A stretch of DNA of 59,367 nucleotides, taken from IMG/VR virus record IMGVR_UViG_3300037419_001059, positions 1 through 59,367 of that record. One strand, given 5' to 3'. The translations under genes and the position numbers were made by a program. Shown here in pieces: positions 4,371-39,826 of this stretch. Position 1 is the stretch's first letter, and every line of letters starts with the position of its first letter. The notes under the pieces were generated by a model. It had not been told where the DNA came from. It did not search any database and was given only the letters and a program-made list of their open reading frames with translations. The stretch comes from a virus (taxonomy: Duplodnaviria; Caudoviricetes).

Positions 4371-7283
4371 ATGGGTATGGGTCAGGAGCTGAAGGATTTC
4401 GTCAGCGGCTTCAGCTCGGGCTACAAGCTCGCGACGCCGACCGAGGGCGAGCTGAAGGCGAAGCAGGAGCGGGACCGGCAGGACGCAATCTCCAAGCTTG
4501 CCGAGAATGACCAGTCCGCGGTCCCCGGCCGCCTGGGGGTCGCGCCGCACCTCTACAAGACCGGCGATGATGGCTCGGGCACCGGCTCGGGCACCGGCTC
4601 AGGCAAGGTAGGCCGCAGCCTGCCGGTGTTCGCGACTGACCTGGGCGAGATGGCGCCTTACGCGCAGTCGATCAGTAAGGTGGAGAGCGGCGGCCGGTAC
4701 GATGCCCTCGGGCCTAAGACGAAGACCGGAGACCGCGCCTATGGCCGTTATCAGGTCATGGGCGCCAATATTCCAAAGTGGACGCAGAAGTATCTCGGCA
4801 GGTCCATGACGCCGGATGAGTTCCTTAAGGACCCGGAAGCACAGGATAAGGTGTTTGCCGGCGAGTTCGGCAGCTACATCAAGAAGTACGGCAACCCGGC
4901 CGATGCCGCGTCGGTGTGGCACTCCGGCAGGCCGCTCGCGACGGCAGCTAGGCTGGGCCTGTCTGACGGGAACATGAAGACCACGGACTACGCCAAGGCC
5001 GTGGTCGGCTCGCTGCCGCGCAGTGCTTCATCGGCGCCCGCTGTGCAACCCGCCCTTCCCCCAACCGCCGTGAACGCCGCGCCAGCGCCGATTCAGGGCA
5101 TCCCCATGCCCGCGCCGGGTGGCCGGACCATGGTCTTGCCGGGTGCCCAGGCGGAGGCCGACCAGGGCGACACCTACAACCCCGGCGACGACAACCAGCC
5201 GACGCAGCTCGCGGCGGATGGCGGCGCGATCATGCCCGTGATGCAGATGCCACCCGACGACCAGATGCAGGACGCCGCGCCGCCCCTGCCGCCGCGGCGC
5301 CCGTCCGACGCCGAGCTTCAAGTTGATCCGCAGATCAATTCACAGCCGGATTACCACCGCATCGCCGGCACGCACGAGGCCATCGACGCCGGTATGGGCG
5401 CGATCAGCAGGGACCTCGAAAATCCAGATGCCGCCCTACCGCAAGCCGGGTCTGATTATCATGGTCGAGTTGCTGCGTTCCATCGCGGCGATGATGCGGC
5501 GACGCCGCAGGAAATCCGACAGATCGATCAGACCATCGACCCTGACAACCGGCTCGTCGCCGACGCGAAGGCCGTCGCGCGCCTGAATGCCGGATACAAA
5601 TACTTCTTGATGCAGGGCGACCCCGACAGAGCCGAGAAGTACGCCAAGTCGATCCTTGGCTACACCAAGCAAGCCGTGAAGTATTACGGTGCGCAGGCCG
5701 AGCAGAAGCTGCGTGCCGGCGATATCGCGGGCGCCGCCGAGGATATCCAGAAGGGCCACAACGAGGTGCCCAACGGGGCGTCGCTCTACATCGACAAGGT
5801 AGATCCGAAGACAGGTAAGGTCGATTACCGCGTTCTGGACGAGGATGGCGACTTGACCGAACGTGGTCAGGCTTATGCCAACCAGCTCATGTCGGTCGCG
5901 ACCGGCATGCAGAACGGCAGTGAGTGGCTGAACCAGATCGCGCAGGGGCGCCAGAACTCGCTGACCGCCGCGCAGAAGGCCGCCGAGAAGCGTCGGGCTG
6001 CCGACGAGGGCGCGGCCAACTCGTTCTATGGCGGGTCCGACATGGACCTGATCAACAAGATGTCGCCCGAGGCCCGCAAGGGCTTCGACGCGGCCTCCCC
6101 TGCCCTCAAGCGGCAGATGCTGGCCGACCTCGCCAACCGCGAGAACGCGGCGCGGGCGCAGACCAAGGACGACCAGAAGCAGGCGTATTACCAGCGTAAG
6201 CAGGATCTGGCGGACACGAAGGCGCAGGACCAGCAGGACTACGCCGGCCACGCGGCTGCCATCGAGAACGCGCGGGATGCCCTGATCGCGCAGCGCAATG
6301 ACGACCCTTACGACACCGAGAAGATGCAGGCAGCGCAAGCCGCCTACGACAAAGCGCTGAGCGACGCCCGTGCCTGGGCGGGTGCCGGCCCGAACCGTGC
6401 GGCGTTCGTCCCGCAGCTCGAACGGCTCGGCAAGTCCGGTGGCGGCGTCGGCGGTGGCGCGGCGGGCGGGACCGGCGGTGGCGGCAAGGGTGGCACGAAG
6501 GACGAGCGCAACATCGCCGGCCTGGACCGCCAGTACACCATGTTCGAGAAGGCCGCGCAGCGCGAGAAAGACCCGGAGCGGCAGAAGCAGCTCATGGCCG
6601 CCCTGCCCCACCAGAAGGCGCAGATCGAGTTCGCCAAGCACGACACCGGCTTTGACGACAAGATCACGCCCGATGTCGAGGCACAGGCCAGCCGGATCAT
6701 CGGCCTGAAGGAGGGTGCCGAGCCCGACGACAAGCAGTCCACGCAGCTCAACGAGTACCAGAACGCCATCCGTGGCATCTTGCAGGGCGACAATGACCTC
6801 ACGCCGAAGCAGGCTGCCGACCTCGCCAAGCTCGCGGTGAAGACCGGCAAGATCAATCTCGACAACGGCCTGTACAGCATCAACGGGTCTGACCCGATCC
6901 GCATGTCACCGCGTGCCGTGTCGTCACTCGCCCGTCTGGTGAAGATGAACAAGCCGGCCGAGCAGCCCACGGCGACGACGCGCAACCCGTTCAGCCCCGA
7001 CCGCCCATCGTCCATCCCGACGCCGGACGAAGCCGATACGGCGAACGCCAGGGCACAGCGGGTGCAGGCCCGACAGGAGGATGCCGCGCCGCGCCGTCGT
7101 CGCGACAAGAGTGCGGAGTACGATCAGCTCCGTTCACAGATCGATGACAGTACATTCGAGCGGATGAAGCAGTTGTCCGGCAGTACAGACGGGCGCGTGC
7201 CTCTTGCTTATCTGCGTAGAGTTGTGAGAGAACAGGCCGGTAAGCGGGCTCGTGTTGTAGATCCCGACCCCAATATGCCGTAG
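4371..7283 (+). CDS. Internal virion protein with lysozyme-like/lytic transglycosylase domain
   Basis: 970 aa. ISKVESGGRYDALG...AYGRYQVM resembles the transglycosylase catalytic Glu and G-x-x-Q motifs. Confidence 0.7.
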   Translation: MGMGQELKDFVSGFSSGYKLATPTEGELKAKQERDRQDAISKLAENDQSAVPGRLGVAPHLYKTGDDGSGTGSGTGSGKVGRSLPVFATDLGEMAPYAQSISKVESGGRYDALGPKTKTGDRAYGRYQVMGANIPKWTQKYLGRSMTPDEFLKDPEAQDKVFAGEFGSYIKKYGNPADAASVWHSGRPLATAARLGLSDGNMKTTDYAKAVVGSLPRSASSAPAVQPALPPTAVNAAPAPIQGIPMPAPGGRTMVLPGAQAEADQGDTYNPGDDNQPTQLAADGGAIMPVMQMPPDDQMQDAAPPLPPRRPSDAELQVDPQINSQPDYHRIAGTHEAIDAGMGAISRDLENPDAALPQAGSDYHGRVAAFHRGDDAATPQEIRQIDQTIDPDNRLVADAKAVARLNAGYKYFLMQGDPDRAEKYAKSILGYTKQAVKYYGAQAEQKLRAGDIAGAAEDIQKGHNEVPNGASLYIDKVDPKTGKVDYRVLDEDGDLTERGQAYANQLMSVATGMQNGSEWLNQIAQGRQNSLTAAQKAAEKRRAADEGAANSFYGGSDMDLINKMSPEARKGFDAASPALKRQMLADLANRENAARAQTKDDQKQAYYQRKQDLADTKAQDQQDYAGHAAAIENARDALIAQRNDDPYDTEKMQAAQAAYDKALSDARAWAGAGPNRAAFVPQLERLGKSGGGVGGGAAGGTGGGGKGGTKDERNIAGLDRQYTMFEKAAQREKDPERQKQLMAALPHQKAQIEFAKHDTGFDDKITPDVEAQASRIIGLKEGAEPDDKQSTQLNEYQNAIRGILQGDNDLTPKQAADLAKLAVKTGKINLDNGLYSINGSDPIRMSPRAVSSLARLVKMNKPAEQPTATTRNPFSPDRPSSIPTPDEADTANARAQRVQARQEDAAPRRRRDKSAEYDQLRSQIDDSTFERMKQLSGSTDGRVPLAYLRRVVREQAGKRARVVDPDPNMP

Positions 7284-14266: not shown

Positions 14267-14313
14267 TATAAGGTAGCCGTGTTGATCCATGGATCAACAC
14301 GGCCCAGGAGGAT

Positions 14314-27685: not shown

Positions 27686-29673
27686 TTCGCCTCTCCGTAG
27701 CTATACCCGACGCCAGCTTCCGCATCGAGCGGAATGTCCGGCCCCCATGCCGGTCGCTCGCGCATGAAACTGAGCAACCCTTCCGTGAACTCTTTGGCAA
27801 ACCCTGTCGGGTGGTTCACCGTCTTGCCGTCCGGCTTCGTCTCAACCTCGATCCCGCCCGGCACCACGTAGACCAGCTCGTCATGCGCCTGGAGCGCGAG
27901 GTCCACGCCGAAGTGCATCCGCACCTTCAGGGCCGTCTCGATGTTGCAGCACCTGGCCAAATGCTGAACGCAGTTTTCGTAGAATTTTCCTCCAAAAAGA
28001 CGCTTCTTCATGCGGCCCGACTTGAATTGCCACTCAAACCCCTTGTCGCCCGGCACCTGTTCTAGCTCGGGGTAGAAGAGCTTCAGCCCGGTCGGCCCCG
28101 TCACCTCGTACTTGCCGAACGTCATCGGCCCGAACTGCCGGTTTGATCCATAGATCAATTCAGGGATCGCTTGCTGGAGCGTCTGCCACGCCTTGGGCAC
28201 GGCCGGCGCCATGCCGAACCGATACCCGTTCACGATCTTCCGGGCCTCGTCCTCCGTCAGGATGATCTCTTCCTTGAGCTGGAGGCGGGAGTCCTTGCGG
28301 ACCTGCACCATGTAGCGGAACCAGCCCATGCCGAAGCCCAGGCCCAGGATCGCCTGCTTGCCGACGAAGCGGGGCTTCTTGTCGGCCTTGGTGATCAGCC
28401 GTTTGTAGATGTGCTTAGTGGCGAACAGCGAGTACACGTCCTCGCCCCGCGCGAACGCCTCCACCAGCTCCGAGCGCTCGCTCCTGATGATAGCGGCGAG
28501 CCACGCCACGATGCGCGCCTCGATCTGTGAGGCGTCGCAGGTTACGACGACGTGGCCGGGCGGGGCTTTGAGCGCATCCCGCAGCTTTCCACCGCGAGAT
28601 AGATTTTGCATGTTGAGCTTCCACTCCCCAGATAACCGATGGGTGTGGGCTCCGCTGTATTTAAGGGCAACTGGAATATACTGTGGTGAGTGTACGCCCA
28701 TACCCGGCCATTGCAGTCTTGATATAGATATAAAACGCTGCGAGCGGGTTTCTTCGATTGTAGATTTGACGCCAACGCGCGCAGCAGCCAGAGTTTGAAC
28801 CGCAACATCATCATGCTCCAGGAGTTCGGCCATGCCTTGATCGGCCTTGGCGAAAGCATAGGTTGGCTTGCCGGTCGTGAGGCTGGTCTTCATCGGGGGA
28901 TCGATCCCGAGATCGCGCAGCAGGCCGGCAAACTTCTCGTTCGACATCAGGGCCGGCGCCTTGCCCCACTCATCCACCTCGACGCCGGCAGCCGCCAGGA
29001 GGGCCGCCTTGTCGGCGCGTACCTGGGCCAAGTGCTCGTGCAGGATCTGTTCGTCCAAAACGAAGTGTGGCTTCACCGCGCAGCGGATCACCGTATCCTT
29101 CACGATGTATTCGTGCTTGGGGAACTCCGGCGCCAGCCGTTGGAAGATCTGTTCGCACAGCACCGCGTCGTTCAACGAGTACTGCGCGTATCGCTGGTAG
29201 AGCCCGGCAGCCTTGATGTCGGCCAAGGTCATGCCGTCCACGCGGACAACCGTGTCGCCCTTCTGGCCCAGCCCCAGGTAGTTCGAGATCATCGCCAGGG
29301 ACACCCGGCCCACCTTCGGGTAGAGCAGCGCCTGTGACATGCCCATGGTGTCCACCATCAGGTCGGGGATGAACCCGTACCTCCAGGCCAGCACGCACAT
29401 GTCGAACAAGGCATTGTGTGAGAGGGCGACGATCTTCTCGCCGTTCTCCTGGCGCTGCTTGAGACGCATCAGGAACGCTTTGAACTCCAGGCCGCCCTCA
29501 ACCCAGTACGGGTCGTGGAAGTTAGACCCTCGCCCCTTGTCGATCACTGCACAGCCGATGCACTCGAACCGCTCGTCAAGGATGTATTCGACGGGCGTCA
29601 TCTTCTTGAGCGTGTACCCGAGCTTGGTCGAGTAAAAAGTCTCGAAGTCCAATACAATGTAGTTCGGGAACAT
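27682..29673 (-). CDS. polA: Family A DNA polymerase with 3'-5' exonuclease domain
   Basis: LDFET, HNALFD, motif A DASQIEAR, motif B RFVGKQAILGLGFG, motif C AHDELV. Confidence 0.92.
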   Translation of the reverse strand: MFPNYIVLDFETFYSTKLGYTLKKMTPVEYILDERFECIGCAVIDKGRGSNFHDPYWVEGGLEFKAFLMRLKQRQENGEKIVALSHNALFDMCVLAWRYGFIPDLMVDTMGMSQALLYPKVGRVSLAMISNYLGLGQKGDTVVRVDGMTLADIKAAGLYQRYAQYSLNDAVLCEQIFQRLAPEFPKHEYIVKDTVIRCAVKPHFVLDEQILHEHLAQVRADKAALLAAAGVEVDEWGKAPALMSNEKFAGLLRDLGIDPPMKTSLTTGKPTYAFAKADQGMAELLEHDDVAVQTLAAARVGVKSTIEETRSQRFISISRLQWPGMGVHSPQYIPVALKYSGAHTHRLSGEWKLNMQNLSRGGKLRDALKAPPGHVVVTCDASQIEARIVAWLAAIIRSERSELVEAFARGEDVYSLFATKHIYKRLITKADKKPRFVGKQAILGLGFGMGWFRYMVQVRKDSRLQLKEEIILTEDEARKIVNGYRFGMAPAVPKAWQTLQQAIPELIYGSNRQFGPMTFGKYEVTGPTGLKLFYPELEQVPGDKGFEWQFKSGRMKKRLFGGKFYENCVQHLARCCNIETALKVRMHFGVDLALQAHDELVYVVPGGIEVETKPDGKTVNHPTGFAKEFTEGLLSFMRERPAWGPDIPLDAEAGVGYSYGEAK

Positions 29674-29762
29674 CTCTTGACTTCTTCTCTGTGCAGAACT
29701 AATTCTAGGCGTGCCGGAGGGGTCCGGCTTCGTGGGTGCTCGGTGGAGGAGCCCGGCAAGCT

Positions 29763-29981
29763 TTAATCGGCTCGCCGGGCTCTTTCCGTTTTGATCTGTG
29801 GATCAATTCCCTTCAGCACGAAGGCGTGCCGCCCGCCCTGCTGCACCACGGCCTCAAGGTAGGCGTCGTGCAGGCGGTTGATGCACTCCAGCGCGTTGTC
29901 CAGCGTGATCTGCCCACTATCGAGCCCGGCCTTGAAGGCTATCGTGAACGGGTACAGGTGCTGGTCAGTCGCGGGCTTCAT
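29763..29981 (-). CDS. Hypothetical protein (72 aa)
   Basis: Start reassigned to ATG 29981 (MKPATDQ...). Confidence 0.55.
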   Translation of the reverse strand: MKPATDQHLYPFTIAFKAGLDSGQITLDNALECINRLHDAYLEAVVQQGGRHAFVLKGIDPQIKTERARRAD

Positions 29982-29991
29982 AGGGCTTCGC

Positions 29992-30243
29992 TCACGAAGT
30001 GGATGAGGATGCAGACGAAGAGGTAGGTTCGCATGGTTCCTTGTCGGCAAGCCAGCAGGCTAGTTCTAGAAGAGAATAGTTCTTGCCGTCTATGTCTCTT
30101 CTACTCCAGGCGTTGACAGTAGGCTTGTGACGGTAATGGTAGAGAGTGATCTTTGTATTATTTTGGTCTAATACCCAAGCCCGTCTTAGCTGCCCGCCCA
30201 TAGCGTCAGGTACTTCCTCCCACTTCACATCACTCAGCCGCAT
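29992..30243 (-). CDS. Cassette mini-gene paralog 1 (MRLS...LELACWLADKEP family)
   Basis: MRLSDVKW...LLELACWLADKEP. TGATG coupling to the vWA gene stop; AT-rich core. Confidence 0.75.
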   Translation of the reverse strand: MRLSDVKWEEVPDAMGGQLRRAWVLDQNNTKITLYHYRHKPTVNAWSRRDIDGKNYSLLELACWLADKEPCEPTSSSASSSTS

Positions 30244-31580
30244 CACTCGGCCCTCACCGGAACCTGCACCACTTCACCGAACGGATACTTCACCGTGCCC
30301 TCAGTGGTGATGCTGCCCCAGATCACCTGATACGGAGGCGGCTCCTTCGGGAATTTCCCATACCCGTCCGTCAGGTAGATCAGCGCCTCTGGCTGCTCGC
30401 CCATGGCCTCGATCTCCTCGAACACCGGGCAGAAGTTGGTGCCGCCCCTGCCCTTCGCGCCTTCCTTGTGGATGCGCTCGATGTCGGCCTCACAGGTGAT
30501 CTCCTGCCAGCCGTGGGTCTTGGCATCGCACCATGTGAACAGGATGCGCTCGGGCTCCATCTCCTCAAGGATGCCGCAGGCTTGGGCCATGAACTCGTTG
30601 ACGGTGGCCGGGTTGATGCTCCCGGAGCTGTCGCCCACCAGCACCAGCAGCCGGCACTTGAACCCGCGCCGGCCGGGGGCGAACACCGGGTCGTCGCGGG
30701 TGATCATGCGCCGGTCGGGCGTGCGGAAGTCGTAGGCGCCCGTGCCGACCGTGCGGTCCAACAGCGAGCGGATCACATCGCTGTAGTGCGTCTCGGCCAC
30801 CTGGAGCTTACCCAGCGCCTGCTGGAGGGCACCGGGGAGCTTGCCCTGCGCCAGGGCGCTCTCGGCGGCTGCCTGGATCTCTGCCTGCCAGCGGCCTTCG
30901 TCGCGGGCGTCCATGGCGGCCTGGGGGCTGCTGCCGGCAGCCGTGCCGGGCGGCAGCAGCTTGTCGAAGCCCTGCCCCTTGCCCTGGCCCTGCTGCGGCT
31001 TGCCGGCGCCCTCGCCGTTGCCCCCTGCCCCGCCGTCGCCCTCGGGCTTGTTCTTGTCCTGCTTCTTCTCCTGCTCCTCGTACATGACACGGTAGATGTC
31101 GAGCACGGACATCTTCGTGGTGAACCGCGTATCCACCAGCCCATCGGGTGGAAGTGAACCGATGTTGCTCTCGATCAGCAGCGCGTTGATGAAGTAGTCC
31201 TGCGCGTGATTCATGATCAGGTCGTTGTACGGCAGCTTCTTGCCGTCCGCGAACACGACGTGACCGGCACGCATCATCTCCGTGCACAGGCCGCTGTGGC
31301 GGAACATGGCGTGGCACACTTCGTGGGCGGCGATGAACACCCGGTGCTCCAGCGGGCGCGGCAGGAACGTCTCCGGGTTGATGATGATCCGTTCGTCGTC
31401 TGAGGCCGCCGTGTCCACGTCGTGGGTGAAGAACGCCTGCTCCTGATCGGGGCCGGTCATCATCGAGTACAGCAGGTGCGAGAACATCGGCGCGCTGTAG
31501 AGCAGCGCCGTGCGCGTCTCGGCCCAGGCTTCGCGCTGCTTCGGGGTCAGGTCAGTAGTCGGGATGGGGGTCAGGGGCAT
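30243..31580 (-). CDS. Metallopeptidase-vWA protein (DUF2201-like)
   Basis: HEVCH (HExxH), DSSGS MIDAS, GGT and YLTDG motifs. Start ATG 31580 follows AAGGA. Confidence 0.85.
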   Translation of the reverse strand: MPLTPIPTTDLTPKQREAWAETRTALLYSAPMFSHLLYSMMTGPDQEQAFFTHDVDTAASDDERIIINPETFLPRPLEHRVFIAAHEVCHAMFRHSGLCTEMMRAGHVVFADGKKLPYNDLIMNHAQDYFINALLIESNIGSLPPDGLVDTRFTTKMSVLDIYRVMYEEQEKKQDKNKPEGDGGAGGNGEGAGKPQQGQGKGQGFDKLLPPGTAAGSSPQAAMDARDEGRWQAEIQAAAESALAQGKLPGALQQALGKLQVAETHYSDVIRSLLDRTVGTGAYDFRTPDRRMITRDDPVFAPGRRGFKCRLLVLVGDSSGSINPATVNEFMAQACGILEEMEPERILFTWCDAKTHGWQEITCEADIERIHKEGAKGRGGTNFCPVFEEIEAMGEQPEALIYLTDGYGKFPKEPPPYQVIWGSITTEGTVKYPFGEVVQVPVRAE

Positions 31581-31803
31581 CGCAGGGTTCCTTGTCGGCA
31601 AGCCAGCAGGCTAGTTCGAGGGGCGTGTGCCCTATTCGTATGCATCCGTCGCCATCGTTATAAGGATGTTTGTAGTAATCATATGTCGGCGTGCCGGGCT
31701 CTGGCCCCGCAATCTGAAATGTACCCCCATCTCGATTGCGCACCCAACATTCATCGAAGCCGTGGACCTTATTCATGATCCACTTCACATCAGCCAGCCG
31801 CAT
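31552..31803 (-). CDS. Cassette mini-gene paralog 2
   Basis: MRLADVKW...PLELACWLADKEP. TGATG coupling. Confidence 0.75.
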   Translation of the reverse strand: MRLADVKWIMNKVHGFDECWVRNRDGGTFQIAGPEPGTPTYDYYKHPYNDGDGCIRIGHTPLELACWLADKEPCDAPDPHPDY

Positions 31804-32045
31804 CACCCGATGTCCAGCTCTGACTTGCCTCGACGGCTGCTCTTGTGTTCAAGCTTGATCTCGTAGCCCTCCGGCAGCAGCATGCTCATCTGCGTGGAGA
31901 GCCCGGTGCAGACCCGCTGCACGATCTGTGCGACAGCCACACGCTGCGCCGATGATAGCGCACCGTTCATCGTGAATAGCTCCAGCGTGAATTGCGCCGT
32001 GCTGGACGTATCGTCGCCGAACTTCTGAATGATGTCTTCGTTCAT
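31803..32045 (-). CDS. Hypothetical protein (80 aa)
   Basis: ATG 32045 lies 5 nt after the GGAG provided by palindrome variant 32048. Confidence 0.6.
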   Translation of the reverse strand: MNEDIIQKFGDDTSSTAQFTLELFTMNGALSSAQRVAVAQIVQRVCTGLSTQMSMLLPEGYEIKLEHKSSRRGKSELDIG

Positions 32046-32175
32046 AGTTGCTCCGTGGATCAAGTTGCCCCTGCCGGCAAATGACAGGGGCTCAATCGGT
32101 TCGTCGGTGTGGGGCAGAGGCATCGTGGCCGCACAGGATTGTTGCCCCTCGCGGCCGTCCCACAGCGCTACCGAA

Positions 32176-32403
32176 CTAGTCGCCGGCCAGCACGCGCTTG
32201 GCGTGCCGGGCTGGGTGGCACTTGAATCGGCGCTTCCGTCGCGCCGGCTTGCCGTTGTTCGTTACATCCGTCTTGCAGCGTGTGCCGGGGTTAGCACCGC
32301 ATGCCGGGCACCGATACTTCAGCGCCCGATCATCGTCGTTGTTCTGTTGGTGCTTATGCGCTGGGGTATGGAGCCAGCGCACGGCGTCTCGGGTCGTCGC
32401 CAT
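32176..32403 (-). CDS. Small zinc-finger protein
   Basis: CPACGANPGTRC...CHPAR. TGATG coupling to the AAA gene. Confidence 0.6.
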   Translation of the reverse strand: MATTRDAVRWLHTPAHKHQQNNDDDRALKYRCPACGANPGTRCKTDVTNNGKPARRKRRFKCHPARHAKRVLAGD

Positions 32404-33482
32404 CACTTCTTCCGCAGCTTGGAGATCGTCACCATCAGCGAGCCGTTGCGCTGGCACCACCCATCCATCGCGGACGTGTTGAGCAGGTTGCCGTCGCGCT
32501 CACAGGCGGCCGACGCGAACAGCACACTGAACTCCTGCGGGAACCGCTCCATGTAGGCCACGAGGATGTCCATGTTGCCCGGCTCGGCCCGTGCCGCCAG
32601 CGAGTACGCCACCAGCATCTGCGCGTCGGCGCGGTCGGGCACCGGGGCCGTCATCGGCCCGGCCATGATGTCGGCGAGCGACGGCAGCTCCAGCTCCAGG
32701 CGGATCATTGCCATGAGCTGCGCGGCTGCCGCAGCTCCGATGTAGCCCTTGGCGTCCTCCTGGGCGGCGTTGTCGGTCGGCAGCTTGCCGTCCGCGTTGG
32801 CGAACTGCATCAGGTGCAGGATGCACATCACGAACGAGCGCGGCGTGCACCACGGCCCCTGCACGGACGGCGCGTCGCTGAACAGGATGTTCGGGTTCTG
32901 CTCCGCGAAGGCCAGGGCGATGGCCGGCAGGCCGGCAGACAGTGCCCAGGACTTCCATCCCTCGATGTCGTCCTTGATCTCGATCTCGCACCGCCGGTTG
33001 ATCAGGTGGTCCAGCTCACGCGTGGAGCCCGAGCGGTCGGAGCGGTAGTTGCCCGCCATCCACACCACCCAGCCCTTGGGCAGCTTGTGGGGGCCGCAGC
33101 GCCCGGTCAGGCCCATCTCGCCGATGATCTTCTTTACGTCAGGATCTGCCTTGTCCTCTTCGTCAACCATCACCACACCGCCGTCGTACTGCTCCAGCGG
33201 CTTGCCTTCGGCGGTGTACCACCAGAACGGGCGGGTGAAGAACGACGCGGCGTTGCCCTCCTTGTCCTTGGACGGGATCAGGTAGCCGATGGCATCGGCC
33301 GGCGTCAGCACGGGGGCGGAGATGTAGCTGAAGCCGATGTTCTTGCCGAGCGCCCTGGAGATGACCGCCGGGGCGCCTTCGATCACCGTCGTCTTGCCCC
33401 GGCCCGGCTTGGAGCGGAGCGTGATGCAGTTGCCGGTCTTGTAGTAACCGACGACGCGCTTGGAGAAGTCACGAAGAAACAT
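32403..33482 (-). CDS. MoxR-like AAA+ ATPase (partner of the vWA protein)
   Basis: SKPGRGKTT Walker A, VDE Walker B, MAGN, and LINR arginine-finger region. Confidence 0.85.
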   Translation of the reverse strand: MFLRDFSKRVVGYYKTGNCITLRSKPGRGKTTVIEGAPAVISRALGKNIGFSYISAPVLTPADAIGYLIPSKDKEGNAASFFTRPFWWYTAEGKPLEQYDGGVVMVDEEDKADPDVKKIIGEMGLTGRCGPHKLPKGWVVWMAGNYRSDRSGSTRELDHLINRRCEIEIKDDIEGWKSWALSAGLPAIALAFAEQNPNILFSDAPSVQGPWCTPRSFVMCILHLMQFANADGKLPTDNAAQEDAKGYIGAAAAAQLMAMIRLELELPSLADIMAGPMTAPVPDRADAQMLVAYSLAARAEPGNMDILVAYMERFPQEFSVLFASAACERDGNLLNTSAMDGWCQRNGSLMVTISKLRKK

Positions 33483-33494
33483 GAGGGGTCCGTT

Positions 33495-33713
33495 TCAGGT
33501 TTGTGGTGGATCGCGGGGTTCTTTGTCGGCAAGCCAACAGGCTAGTTCTAACAGAGAAGGGCTTTTGAATACGTTGTAATCGGTTTCATTACATATCGCC
33601 GAGTAATGAACTTGCCAATCCCAAATTCGATAAGTGTACTGGGAGCACTTGACGTGCGCTTTCTTATATTTTCCTAGCGTGCTGCCATCCCATTTAAGTT
33701 CCGAGAGCCGCAT
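33495..33713 (-). CDS. Cassette mini-gene paralog 3
   Basis: MRLSELKW...LLELACWLADKEP; AT-rich core. Confidence 0.75.
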   Translation of the reverse strand: MRLSELKWDGSTLGKYKKAHVKCSQYTYRIWDWQVHYSAICNETDYNVFKSPSLLELACWLADKEPRDPPQT

Positions 33714-33716
33714 CGC

Positions 33717-34004
33717 TCACTCCCTCTTGGGGATCTCACCCCAATAGCAGTTGCCAGGGTCATAACCCCTGTCGTGATCGCGCCGGAACAGGCGATGACC
33801 TTCCGGGCACTCGCCCATATCTTCAAGGAAGATCTTGAAGTCGAACCACATCGGGTCGTGGTACTGCGCCGGTTGCTCGCGAACCCAGCGCTGACCTTCC
33901 TCGCTGACGCGCCGGATGTACGCCCAGGCGTTGTAGGTGCGGGTGTGCCGCATCCCGTGCTCCACAGGGCGGCCGGCAGCTCTGCGCACGGGGTGGTTCA
34001 TCAC
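33717..34004 (-). CDS. Degenerate HNH-related phage protein
   Basis: HGM..TRTYNAW...W.DF..FLEDMGECPEG...GYDPGNCYW pattern. Confidence 0.6.
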   Translation of the reverse strand: MMNHPVRRAAGRPVEHGMRHTRTYNAWAYIRRVSEEGQRWVREQPAQYHDPMWFDFKIFLEDMGECPEGHRLFRRDHDRGYDPGNCYWGEIPKRE

Positions 34005-34783
34005 GCGTCTTCCTGGCTGTCTTCGCCGGTCACGCCGAGGTAGCCGGCAAGCATCTCGCAGAGCATGCCAGCGCTGGTCAGCGTGTTGGCCCGCACCGCC
34101 GGGTCCTGGCGGATGAAGTCCATATGCTTCTTGAGGTCGTCGTAGGACGTGAAGGTCTCGGCCTGGGTGCAGAACCGATCCACATGGACCGAATTGTCCA
34201 CGTTGCAGCCGCGCAGCACCCGCACCTTGGACTTGACCGAACCGAGCAGCACGTCACGGATGACGCAGCGGTTCGAAGCGGTCGGGTTGGCGACGTAGTT
34301 GTGGAACTCGGTGAGCTTATCCCTGAAGCGCACCGTGGCGCTGTAGAGCGCGCCAAGCTGTTCCTCGACGCCGGCCTCGTAGTCGCGCACCACGCCATCG
34401 ACCACCATCCGCGAGAACCCGACGCGGAACCGCTCCGGCAGCTCGGAGAACTCGTCGTGCCGGGGCACCGGCTCGTAGCGGATGCCGATGGAGAAGGCCG
34501 CGCGCTGCTCGTCGTTGAGCTGGCCGATCAGCGCCTTCATGGCGCCGAGCGAGCGGCCCGCCGTCTCTACCAGCTCCGGCACCGCGTTGGCCGGCACAGC
34601 CCGCCTGGAGCCGAAGCGGATGCTGTAATCGGTGAAGGCACCGAGCGCCGCTTCATGGTGCTCCACGAGTTGCTTGCGCAGGGTGTCGTCCAGCCCGTCC
34701 AGCTTGCGCGGCGGGGCGCGGTGCGTGAGCGTCACGAGCACGAAGCTCTTACGCAGCTCGTCTACCAGTTCCAGCTTGTCCAT
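34001..34783 (-). CDS. Hypothetical helical protein (possibly a DUF3150-like partner of AAA/vWA)
   Basis: 260 aa from ATG 34783 with a GGAG RBS. Family assignment is by context only. Confidence 0.45.
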   Translation of the reverse strand: MDKLELVDELRKSFVLVTLTHRAPPRKLDGLDDTLRKQLVEHHEAALGAFTDYSIRFGSRRAVPANAVPELVETAGRSLGAMKALIGQLNDEQRAAFSIGIRYEPVPRHDEFSELPERFRVGFSRMVVDGVVRDYEAGVEEQLGALYSATVRFRDKLTEFHNYVANPTASNRCVIRDVLLGSVKSKVRVLRGCNVDNSVHVDRFCTQAETFTSYDDLKKHMDFIRQDPAVRANTLTSAGMLCEMLAGYLGVTGEDSQEDA

Positions 34784-35021
34784 CTTCGTGTGCTCCGTTG
34801 ATCCGTGGATCAATTTGCTTGTCGGAAAGAAACTCGGCGAGCCGCTCGGGGCTGTTGATCCAGTACGTGATGGTGCGCTCCTCCCCCTGTGCGTCGATCA
34901 CCGGGAACTCGCACACCTGTATCGGGTCGCCGTCGCGCTGCCTGTAGAGGTCGAACACGCGCGGCCCACAGTGAACCGTCGCGTCGCCGTTCATCCCGAA
35001 TTGAAGATCTTGAGGACGCAT
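34749..35021 (-). CDS. Hypothetical protein (90 aa)
   Basis: ATG 35021 lies 7 nt after the GGAG from palindrome variant 35026. Confidence 0.6.
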   Translation of the reverse strand: MRPQDLQFGMNGDATVHCGPRVFDLYRQRDGDPIQVCEFPVIDAQGEERTITYWINSPERLAEFLSDKQIDPRINGAHEDGQAGTGRRAA

Positions 35022-35042
35022 TGAATTGCTCCGTGGATCAAC

Positions 35043-35070
35043 ATATAGGGTATTACGTAATAGTGTCAAG
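35043..35070 (-). promoter_or_regulatory. Sigma70-type leftward promoter with TATTACGTAATA between -35 and -10
   Basis: Minus strand reads CTTGACA-CTATTACGTAATACC-CTATAT, immediately followed by palindrome 35026-35041. Confidence 0.7.
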
Positions 35071-35428
35071 CCACCTTGACCGGCAGCATCTGATCCAGTT
35101 CTTCCTCAGTCCAGGGCAGGAAGTGATCCTTCGGCACGCGTAGCTCAACTTGAGCTTCCCATGGAAATTGTCTGTGCGTAGAGCCCGTGCAGTGTTGGAG
35201 CAGGACACTCAGCTCCAAAGCGTTGAGTGGACCACTGTGTGACCACAACCCGCCGGGCCAATCGGGCGCCGGATATTGATACATGTACTGAAACCTGTAG
35301 AGGCCGCCAGTATGGGCGTACAGGTCCGACTGGAGCGCCCGGCACCAGATGCCGTCGGAGCGGCGCAGGTACTGCGAATACCGGATGTCCTCCGGCGTTC
35401 GCGTCCAGTCGATGTCCGCCAGCCGCAT
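35066..35428 (-). CDS. Cassette mini-gene paralog 4 (diverged 3' end)
   Basis: MRLADIDW...NALELSVLL. TGATG coupling; shares the 5' DNA GTGATGCGGCTG. Confidence 0.65.
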   Translation of the reverse strand: MRLADIDWTRTPEDIRYSQYLRRSDGIWCRALQSDLYAHTGGLYRFQYMYQYPAPDWPGGLWSHSGPLNALELSVLLQHCTGSTHRQFPWEAQVELRVPKDHFLPWTEEELDQMLPVKVA

Positions 35429-35919
35429 CACCCCCTCCGCTTGAACAGGCGCCCCAGGAACCCCGCAGGCTTGACCCGTGGCGGGCATAGCTCGGCCAGA
35501 GCTAGGGATGCCGCAGCCCGTTCCTCCCTGCCCTGTACGGCCTTCTCACGGGCCTCCACGGCCAATTCACGTTGGTCCAATTCCTGTTGCCACGTCGCCA
35601 GCGAGCGCCGGGCATCGGCGAGCCTGTCGTGAACCGCCTTCACCGCCTGGACGAACTGGTCCGGCTTGGGGCCGTCAGCGGTCGGCGTGATGTTGAGCGA
35701 GCGCGCCAGCGTGTCTGTGAGACTGGCTGTGTCGGCGGCCAGCGTCGGCGCGGGCGATGATAGCGCAGCCCCCGGCAGCATGGTCGGTGCCGGCAACTCG
35801 GGCTGCGGCTGGGTCACGGCGCGCTTGCCCCTGCGGGGCGGCGTGGTGACGTGGCCGTCGAGCGGGATGTGCAGCGCCAGGAGGTCTTCCGCGCTGTGGC
35901 CGTTGATCTCAGGGGTCAT
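35428..35919 (-). CDS. Hypothetical coiled-coil protein
   Basis: 163 aa from ATG 35919 (ATGA overlap). Confidence 0.6.
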   Translation of the reverse strand: MTPEINGHSAEDLLALHIPLDGHVTTPPRRGKRAVTQPQPELPAPTMLPGAALSSPAPTLAADTASLTDTLARSLNITPTADGPKPDQFVQAVKAVHDRLADARRSLATWQQELDQRELAVEAREKAVQGREERAAASLALAELCPPRVKPAGFLGRLFKRRG

Positions 35920-36191
35920 TGCTTCTGCTCCAGTTGCCAGCACTTGTATTCAAGCGGCGTCATCTTGTGGGGTAACAGGTTCTTCAGCAGCGCCGATGGA
36001 TCGGTGCAGCGGTTCTCTATGGTGTTGCCGTCCCTGTACAATGTGTAGAGGTAGTTCGTGGGCTGCGGCTTGGCGCTCTCGCCGGGCTGCGGGGTGCGCA
36101 TCAGCAGGTACACGTCCTGGCCGCGATACAGGACTTGCGAGCGCTCGCTGTCTTTGTTCTGCCGGCTCCATGTGATCTCGCTGAGCAGCAC
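35916..36191 (-). CDS. Cassette mini-gene paralog 5 (most diverged)
   Basis: GTG start after GGAGG. MLLSEITW...TPLEYKCWQLE. Confidence 0.55.
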   Translation of the reverse strand: MLLSEITWSRQNKDSERSQVLYRGQDVYLLMRTPQPGESAKPQPTNYLYTLYRDGNTIENRCTDPSALLKNLLPHKMTPLEYKCWQLEQKQ

Positions 36192-36204
36192 GGCATCCTC
36201 CACG

Positions 36205-36233
36205 AAAAAGGGGACCGGCAACACCGATCCCCT
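36205..36233 (-). terminator. Intrinsic terminator
   Basis: Minus strand AGGGGATCGGT-GTT-GCCGGTCCCCT followed by TTTT. Confidence 0.6.
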
Positions 36234-36259
36234 GTACCACTCCGAACCGACCGCCGGGA

Positions 36260-37240
36260 CTACTCCGCGTCGCTCTCTTCCGTCTTCAGCTCGGCGTTGA
36301 GCTTCAGCAGCCGCTTGCGGATCACATCGATGGCGCGGCGCACCTCCTCGCTCTCGGCGCCGGCCCGATCATCCGTGCCGTCGAGAACCTTGGTCAGCTT
36401 CTTGACCACGCCCTCCAGCTCGTCACGCTCGAACTCGGCGAGCGACCGCTCGTCTTCCTTCGGGCCGGGCTTCGACACCAGGACCTTGATGGCGTCCTGG
36501 GTCATCGGCTTGGTCTTTGCGTCGAGCTTGACCGCCTTGAGCTGCGCGCTCGCCACCGAGTACAGGCACTCGTAGGTGGACTTGCGCTCCGAGCGCGGGA
36601 TCTTCTCGTTGATGAACTCGCGCGCCTTGGCGAGGAACACCGGGGCGTTGCCCTTCCACTCGGCAGCGCCGAGGTTGGCGAAGGTGCGCAGCTTCGAGAC
36701 GTGAAACTTGTCGTTCTTCTCGGCGATGGAATCCGAAGTCTTATCGAGCCGGGCCGCGTCCATGCCCTCGCGATACTTGGCGAAGATCACCGCCACGTCC
36801 TCACTGCCGCGACCGGCCGAGATCACGCCGTCCTTAGCGGCCGAGCACACCAGCAGCGCCAGCTCGGCCATGGAGTTGGCGCCCTGCCCCTGCGTGGTGC
36901 CGAGGTCCTGCACCTCCTTCATCAGCTCGGCGATGCGCTCGTCCAGCACGCCGGAATTGTCACCCACGGTCGGGGTGCCAGTCGGGTTGTCCTTGGTCAC
37001 GTTGCCGACTGCCGGCATGTGGGGGGCTTTCTTGGCGGCAGCCTTGGGAGCAGCCGGGGCGGCGGAAGCCGGCGGGGGCGCGGCGGGCGTTGCGGCATTC
37101 TGGACCGGGGGTGAAGCGTTGGCGAGGGGAGCGCCGGCCGGCTGGGGCGGCGGGGCAGCGGGGGCAGCGGCGGGCGGCGGTGCAGCCGGGGCGAGGCCGG
37201 GAAGCGTGGCGGGGGCGCCACCGAAAGCATCGGTCTTCAT
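36260..37240 (-). CDS. Hypothetical protein with Pro/Ala-rich N-terminus
   Basis: 326 aa from ATG 37240. The RBS comes from palindrome variant 37248. Confidence 0.7.
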   Translation of the reverse strand: MKTDAFGGAPATLPGLAPAAPPPAAAPAAPPPQPAGAPLANASPPVQNAATPAAPPPASAAPAAPKAAAKKAPHMPAVGNVTKDNPTGTPTVGDNSGVLDERIAELMKEVQDLGTTQGQGANSMAELALLVCSAAKDGVISAGRGSEDVAVIFAKYREGMDAARLDKTSDSIAEKNDKFHVSKLRTFANLGAAEWKGNAPVFLAKAREFINEKIPRSERKSTYECLYSVASAQLKAVKLDAKTKPMTQDAIKVLVSKPGPKEDERSLAEFERDELEGVVKKLTKVLDGTDDRAGAESEEVRRAIDVIRKRLLKLNAELKTEESDAE

Positions 37241-39784: not shown

Positions 39785-39826
39785 GGGTGTTGCTCCTTTG
39801 CCACTATTACGTAATAGATCCACGGA

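Follow-up and report, generated by a model that had tools for sequence, protein, structure and literature searches.

Constant ends and apparently replaced cores in a rare family of small phage proteins

Five small open reading frames (ORFs), m1 to m5, sit inside the minus-strand early/replication operon of a temperate soil phage known from a 59,367-bp IMG/VR virus record (IMGVR_UViG_3300037419_001059), estimated to be 98% complete; the whole record is the window analyzed here. We found that the five belong to one family of small proteins, in which m1, m2, and m3 (type C) combine invariant ends with middles that can hardly be aligned and that differ between close relatives. The explanation that we favor, with a probability of about 60%, is that diversifying selection maintains deep core alleles of this family, which are transferred through homologous recombination at, or close to, the constant ends. 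The features concerned are the following.

29992..30243, minus strand: m1, type C, 83 amino acids (aa), flanked by the vWA gene and a gene of 72 aa; core differs in relatives
31552..31803, minus strand: m2, type C, 83 aa; 3' tail overlapping the vWA gene, which starts at the ATG of 31580; core differs in relatives
33495..33713, minus strand: m3, type C, 72 aa, between an HNH-like gene and an AAA ATPase gene; absent here in both relatives
35066..35428, minus strand: m4, type A, 120 aa, with an additional C-terminal extension; GC content at third codon positions (GC3) 0.73
35916..36191, minus strand: m5, type B, 91 aa, GTG start; native-like GC3 of 0.86 and ordinary orthologues
34749..35021, minus strand: m6, 90 aa, possibly a distant sixth member; MRPQDLQF at the N terminus, LAEFLSDK at the C terminus
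30035..30066, minus strand: 3' constant DNA segment of m1 (32 nt), with the same sequence as 31586-31617 of m2; includes the 26-mer described below
31586..31617, minus strand: 3' constant DNA segment of m2, with AAGGA 8 nt ahead of the vWA ATG
33523..33548, minus strand: 3' constant DNA segment of m3, the 26-mer carrying one synonymous change
30096..30216, minus strand: variable core of m1, 121 nt, bounded by a contig of run X2 (record 9) that matches both flanks
31609..31779, minus strand: variable core of m2, 171 nt, bounded by a contig of run X3 (record 17) that matches both flanks

An earlier note on this DNA had described these five ORFs, giving no strand, as mini-genes with conserved ends and unrelated cores, and we confirmed all five at the positions that it gave. 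For m5 this requires a start at the GTG of 36191; GGAGGA stands ahead of it, and the m5 orthologues share the start MRLSEIKW. A terminator-like hairpin (36209-36233, minus strand; 11 pairs and then a T-run) lies between a 359-aa gene and m5, directly ahead of this GGAGGA and start codon. All five proteins begin with M(R/L)L(S/A)(D/E)xxW, and the constant ends of type C are MRLADVKW and LELACWLADKEP. The latter motif is present in m1, m2, and m3, as had been noted, only not at their very end, since position-specific tails of 6 to 13 residues come after it; m4 and m5 carry LELSVLL and PLEYKCWQLE, respectively, at their C termini. At the DNA level, there are exactly three copies of a 26-mer, at 30041, 31592, and 33523 (0 matches in 100 shuffles), and the identity between m1 and m2 is exact over the 32 bases of their 3' constant segments. 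The copies of a 5' repeat at 30220 and 31780 agree at 90% of 30 nt, and those at 33690 and 35405 are weaker. The type C cores are AT-rich, as the note had remarked of at least two of the middles, with a GC content of 0.43 to 0.52 versus 0.63 for the window and a GC3 of 0.50 to 0.55 (0.36 to 0.58 at the widest), against 0.86 for m5; that of the longer ORFs of the window is mostly about 0.7 to 0.9. The operon holding m1 to m5 is translationally coupled, m1, m2, and m4 starting in a TGATG overlap with the upstream stop codon and m3 starting 3 nt past it.

Evaluation of the five sequences with a family hidden Markov model (HMM) recovered exactly m1 to m5 from the window (E values of 3e-30 to 2e-16), the next match having an E value of 1.8, and a profile search of three related records returned 5, 5, and 4 family members. 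Elsewhere the family is scarce. A five-sequence profile yielded 12 matches among 327 candidates from 5.77 billion proteins, HMMER yielded 15 matches at an E value of 0.001 or less over 1.84 billion representatives, and a type C profile yielded 9 proteins only among 704 candidates from the 5.77 billion; every family match with a source name came from Methylobacterium. None of the five proteins matched a family in Pfam, PHROGs, NCBIfam, or PADLOC; m4 and m2, searched by tblastn in 50,697 GenBank phage records, gave no match, and a type A alignment found nothing among viral contigs. Among GenBank phages the nearest are four Rhizobium RHph_TM records (70.9% identity over 7% of the query), and no family member was detected in their 13-kb locus L004 (best E value, 4.4). 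Taken together, these searches indicate a family of small proteins that is real but rare. Within it, type A proteins (m4-like, 118 to 126 aa) and type B proteins (m5-like, 88 to 100 aa) have orthologues that are 58 to 65% and 51 to 57% identical, respectively, over their full length, and we regard m4 and m5 as slower-evolving members of the same family as m1, m2, and m3. Among type C cores just 7/78 pairs exceeded a z score of 3, and two proteins of one core lineage, P0007 and P0016, have 33/47 core residues in common. The ORF m6 has the N-terminal motif in common with the family and resembles it in the motif of the C-terminal helix; we rate it as a possible member, because hhalign aligned just 10 N-terminal columns with the family (probability, 11.6%).

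Structure prediction argues likewise against unrelated cores. The AlphaFold2 (AF2) model of m3, built on a 24-sequence alignment, has five strands and a C-terminal helix at residues 54 to 64 (predicted local distance difference test [pLDDT], 82; predicted template modeling score, 0.63), and the model of m4 (pLDDT, 73) has elements in the same order, plus its extension. On the earlier question of whether the cores share a fold, the models show a beta-meander closed by a C-terminal helix. Since one family HMM catches all five proteins and one shared fold is predicted, calling the cores unrelated was an overstatement; according to the models, they are very diverged versions of one fold. The VIA comparisons placed the same chain, YkuJ (2ffg_B), on top for both models (Z, 5.8 for m3 and 4.5 for m4); the m3 model matched at Z values of 5.8 (root mean square deviation [rmsd] 2.9, 61 aligned residues) and 5.2 (rmsd 3.0, 63 aligned residues) and the m4 model at 4.5, 3.8, and 3.8, all of which fall under the stated noise level of this method (typical best Z, 7 to 8). 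YkuJ (2ffg), the TriTu immunity protein (7zhm), and DUF1653 (3be3) are small beta-sheet-plus-helix proteins that resemble the AF2 models in overall arrangement and differ from them in sequence, at 2 to 12% identity with scores within noise, and we therefore draw neither membership nor function from this likeness. Foldseek gave a best E value of 0.32 against the PDB and of 0.017, for an uncharacterised protein, against BFVD, and the ESM Atlas gave no usable feature match, its structure rows having TM scores below 0.5 and resting on a poor Atlas model.

We then looked into the same positions in two syntenic Methylobacterium-associated phage records (L005 and L006, one of them flagged as a provirus), whose PolA, vWA, and AAA proteins are 65 to 79% identical to those of the window and 82 to 91% identical to each other. 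Both carry type C genes at the m1 position (p1) and at the m2 position (p2), so that these two copies are fixed in position in 3/3 phages. Between L005 and L006, DNA identity is 80 to 97% in the flanks and 27 to 53% in the p1 and p2 cores, which differ in length as well (156 versus 162 nt and 153 versus 132 nt). The edges of identity are sharp and coincide with the W8 codon and the CT(A/G)GAACTAGCC motif (p1; TTAGAA in L006 p2). Soil-metagenome contigs provided other m1 and m2 cores between flanks that are about 96% identical. The 1,293-nt contig of run X2 (record 9) agrees with the window over 29500-30095 (25 differences) and 30217-30719 (17 differences), while the 121-nt core in between, at 30096-30216, is diverged with its length unchanged. 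The 1,952-nt contig of run X3 (record 17) matches both m2 flanks and has 153 other letters in place of 171, a change in length equal to that between m2 and the metagenome protein P0007, which itself has the ends and tail of m2 and a different core.

The expectation that relatives would carry different cores or empty sites at the same junctions was thus borne out for m1, m2, and m3, through L005, L006, and the metagenome contigs. The junction between the HNH-like and AAA genes, where m3 is found in the window, is empty in L005, and in L006 it is occupied by an unrelated hydrophobic mini-ORF of 32 aa (about 4615-4715 of that locus); m3 is therefore polymorphic for its presence at a defined site, and the junction is a small insertion hotspot. 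For m5, the idea of a swappable core did not hold, its orthologues having the same core with ordinary divergence. The outcome was mixed for m4, the subtype diverging in the ordinary way while its site harbors a different family member in L006; in L005 the site holds a split type A gene. There, at 570-2690, the member is split just past its constant N terminus by an ISL3 transposase fragment (PF01610, 4.9e-44), and the split also includes a gene for an Rv2179c-like 3'-5' exoribonuclease (PF16473, 6.1e-11).

Comparison of type C cores across genomes indicates that their similarity does not track position, the best pairs being m3 with L006 p2 (z, 6.0) and m2 with L005 p1 (z, 4.6), compared with z values of 2.4 or less for pairs at the same position. 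The ends are also uniform at the DNA level. Four rare codons of the 3' end (GAA, CTA, CTT, and GAA, with usages of 0.22, 0.03, 0.085, and 0.22) are kept in 27/27 cases over seven copies, against a background retention of rare codons of 23/95, 25/98, and 35/88 (24 to 40%) in flanking genes, and the 5' end of m1 differs from that of m2 at 2/24 nt and from its positional counterparts at 6 and 7. According to De Paepe et al. (2014, PMC3945230), the minimal pairing lengths are 31 to 34 bp for RecA and 23 to 27 for Red-beta, values that the exact 32-nt stretch of m1 and m2 reaches. We infer that crossovers are located within the constant ends, although the sharp edges of identity do not place them there, because any allelic replacement leaves such edges.

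Could the type C genes simply be fast-evolving paralogues in which point mutation, with positive or relaxed selection, altered the cores in place, the ends being kept for the needs of the protein and cassettes never exchanged? Divergence inside the one core lineage of P0007 and P0016 is indeed ordinary, the m1 allele from run X2 equals the m1 core in length, the codon identity of the 3' ends (0.75) is inside the background, and AT-richness would fit a mutation bias in fast-evolving sequence. Yet the flanks of L005 and L006 differ by only about 3 to 20% and their flanking genes retain 72 to 78% of codons at identical residues, whereas the cores are unalignable and unequal in length. As the cores are thus more diverged than the synonymous sites of flanking genes, point mutation in place is unlikely as the sole cause. 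That core similarity does not track position, and that the rare 3'-end codons are retained far above background, also makes this explanation distinctly unlikely. Targeted hypermutation by a diversity-generating retroelement or a similar system would account for hypervariation limited to the region between constant ends and, again, for the allele with the length of the m1 core. We set it aside as barely credible, because a search for reverse transcriptase (PF00078) gave 0 matches in this 98%-complete record while controls were positive in three genomes, no second (template) copy of any core occurs in 29500-36500, and core lengths vary from 132 to 162 nt.

Two further explanations concern the repeated DNA itself. 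Conservation of the 3' end at the nucleotide level might reflect a cis-acting signal, namely a ribosome-binding site (RBS) with translational coupling or a protein-binding site, instead of recombination; this is compatible with moving core alleles and, as an account of the ends, we hold it to be unlikely. The earlier note had AAGGA serve as the RBS of the next gene at two ORFs, which stands for m2, where AAGGAAC is found 8 nt ahead of the vWA ATG in the window and in both relatives. It does not stand for m1, where AAGGAACCATG opens only an 18-codon ORF (29978-30034, minus strand) whose stop overlaps the ATG of the next gene; at p1 of all three phages, AAGGAAC precedes the ATG of such an ORF, ending in ATGA at the next gene. 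In m3, where the motif is not placed to serve the next gene, AAAGA replaces AAGGA, as a cis signal would predict. However, an RBS accounts for about 7/32 of the conserved bases, and an RNA element in the 3' end found no support, RNAalifold on the seven copies returning -4.6 kcal/mol, 6 pairs, and 0 compensatory changes. A promoter and terminator scan of 29400-36600 gave 1 promoter-like and 3 terminator-like sites versus 1.2 and 4.6 in shuffles, with none at m1, m2, or m3. The other explanation, which takes up the mobile mini-element of the earlier note, is that each unit is self-mobile and settles between genes without disrupting them, perhaps with the aid of the adjacent HNH-like endonuclease. 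The presence of m3 directly downstream of the HNH-like ORF, its absence from the same junction in L005 and L006, and the ISL3 fragment with other DNA just behind the constant 5' end of the L005 member would suit such an element. On the other side, the units have 72 to 84 codons and no enzyme domain, neither terminal inverted repeats nor target duplications were seen at the m3 junction, both relatives have the HNH-like gene although they lack m3, and the p1 and p2 copies stay fixed in three phages; we therefore consider a mobile mini-element highly unlikely.

The 18-codon ORF at the 3' end of m1 is hydrophobic and of equal length in L005 and L006. We do not claim it as a gene, because its substitution pattern fits the frame of the Ser-rich m1 tail at least as well; it may be a translated coupling relay or just an alternative frame of that tail.

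Several points weigh against recombination of core alleles as we propose it. The DNA comparison set consists of two relatives and of three soil-metagenome runs (X1 to X3) with this DNA or near kin of it, given as contigs and not as reads. The X2 allele of m1, being unchanged in length, could be a fast-diverged homologue instead of a swap. The similarities of cores across positions are weak (13/44 and 17/52 identities), the overall codon identity of the 3' ends (165/219) lies inside the background range of 0.58 to 0.78, so that the four rare codons alone stand out, and no fold match exceeds noise (best Z, 5.8). No contig of X1 to X3 joins m1 to m2 or m2 to m3, and the X1 contig stops at 30064, within the repeat; as contigs, these runs neither show nor exclude deletions between the 26-nt repeats. 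A search with the pattern CCTGYTGGCTTGCYGAYAARGAAC returned two known IMG/VR contigs only (4 overlapping loci), with 0 in genome contigs and 0 in metagenome contigs. The vWA protein alone retrieved nothing from viral contigs, nor did a vWA alignment from genome contigs and metagenome contigs.

We propose that m1 to m5 are paralogues built from an N-terminal strand, a beta-meander of 4 to 5 strands, and a C-terminal helix, the termini of type C probably packing together as a structural core. The type C meander would exist as many deeply diverged, AT-rich allelic lineages between constant termini. Homologous recombination at or close to these ends and in the flanks would shift core alleles between related phages and apparently also between positions, and the same recombination would keep the ends uniform at the DNA level, with diversifying or frequency-dependent selection presumably keeping the core alleles apart. 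Constant ends with a replaced middle in the closest relatives are the pattern expected of arms-race genes, and sites of whole-allele replacement between close relatives are the usual ground of phage-host or phage-phage conflict. Each protein is probably a small binder or inhibitor whose targets are variable factors of the host or of competitors, because constant termini with a variable sheet, several slots per genome, and whole-allele polymorphism fit such a function. A complex prediction for m2 with the vWA protein gave no answer (score, 0.00) and weighs neither way.

It is possible, though doubtful, that the constant coding ends go further and form a built-in exchange system, by which a phage lineage keeps interchangeable binding modules, all on one mini-scaffold, as a library of the whole population. 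In that case the 5' end (24 nt) and the 3' end (32 to 41 nt) would serve as recombination anchors and also keep an essential replication operon translationally coupled. Two or three slots per phage could be re-equipped with new specificities against host defenses or rival phages while leaving the neighbors undisturbed, a recombinational repertoire like that of antigenic-variation cassettes but spread across a phage metapopulation. The family would also be a case in which the anchors belong to the coding sequence of the very gene that is exchanged and leave operon translation intact, unlike the non-coding cassettes discussed below. It is compact, in that the scaffold is single and small, its termini are constant, many core variants occur in nature, and two relatives come from sequenced isolates, so that the role of the cores would be testable by simple swaps; if the proteins are inhibitors, the core variants would be a ready-made panel of specificities.

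In polymorphic toxin/immunity loci and antigenic-variation cassettes (pilS/pilE and vls), a constant segment borders a variable one, and the variants often have a lower GC content and are exchanged by homologous recombination. The proteins m1 to m5 differ from these systems in having both ends constant, a length of 72 to 120 aa, and no toxin domain; a silent cassette archive is absent from the window, where the HMM finds just five copies, all at expressed positions. Mosaicism of temperate phages by relaxed homologous recombination was reportedly described by Martinsohn et al. in 2008. In PMC3945230, the exchanged segments of such mosaics are likewise edged by short stretches of above-background identity and are scattered along genomes, whereas here the same pair of anchors recurs two or three times per genome around one family. 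The PeSLs of T4-type phages are, in the account of Arbiol et al. (2010, PMC2839356), non-coding cassettes of a promoter and a stem-loop terminator. Their shuffling resembles the present case in that short conserved motifs repeated in one genome flank small non-essential ORFs of unknown function and that these motifs mark the points at which close relatives differ by an insertion, a deletion, or a replacement, as they do here. The repeated segments of m1, m2, and m3 differ from PeSLs, as far as these are described there, in being the coding termini of variable proteins in a coupled operon, and a sigma-70-like promoter with a stem-loop terminator was not found as their repeated motif. Phage diversity hotspots (Egorov et al. 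2024, bioRxiv 10.1101/2024.10.15.618418) share with this locus a variable cargo between conserved, syntenic flanking genes of related phages; in that study, the cargo is often tied to defense or counter-defense and usually consists of unrelated genes, while here it always comes from one family with constant termini. Diversity hotspots themselves are known; this case is new in that a single protein family, encoded in a translationally coupled operon, supplies the anchors through its own coding termini.

The window further encodes an integrase, a terminase, a portal, a major head protein, and very large virion proteins, and its early/replication operon, with all genes on the minus strand, contains a primase-helicase, an SNF2 helicase, a PD-(D/E)XK nuclease, and a family A DNA polymerase. 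Among the annotations of the window we found no Rad52-like recombinase. The immediate neighbors of the type C genes are the following.

30243..31580, minus strand: DUF2201 metallopeptidase-like plus vWA-like protein (PF13203, 7.3e-24; PF09967, 1.4e-19), with m2 and m1 on either side
32403..33482, minus strand: AAA ATPase (phrog_1297, 6.8e-69), downstream of m3
33717..34004, minus strand: HNH-endonuclease-like small ORF, upstream of m3 and present also in the relatives without m3

Within the vWA gene, the segment 30958-31048 encodes a low-complexity Gly/Gln/Lys-rich linker of the DUF2201/vWA protein and is a third segment in which identity between L005 and L006 collapses (0.20 to 0.40).

Across the whole window, a palindromic 16-mer, TTGATCCRYGGATCAA, has 31 occurrences at 2 mismatches or fewer versus 0.11 expected, for example at 14282, 19173, 27301, 32048, 34798, 35026, 37248, 38694, 39227, 42074, 45634, 53503, and 57900, and the 16-kb syntenic loci of L005 and L006 contain just 1 to 2 copies. 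Most copies lie 3 to 40 nt upstream of start codons, and the variant ...ACGGAGCAA provides a GGAG Shine-Dalgarno sequence. The 16-mer may be an operator or promoter-associated module, or else a spreading intergenic repeat. A second palindrome, TATTACGTAATA, stands beside some of the copies, in the 35044-35056 region and near 39800 and 42050; at 35040-35069, a promoter-like site (TTGACA-18-TATGTT) that comes just upstream of m6 has this palindrome in its spacer.

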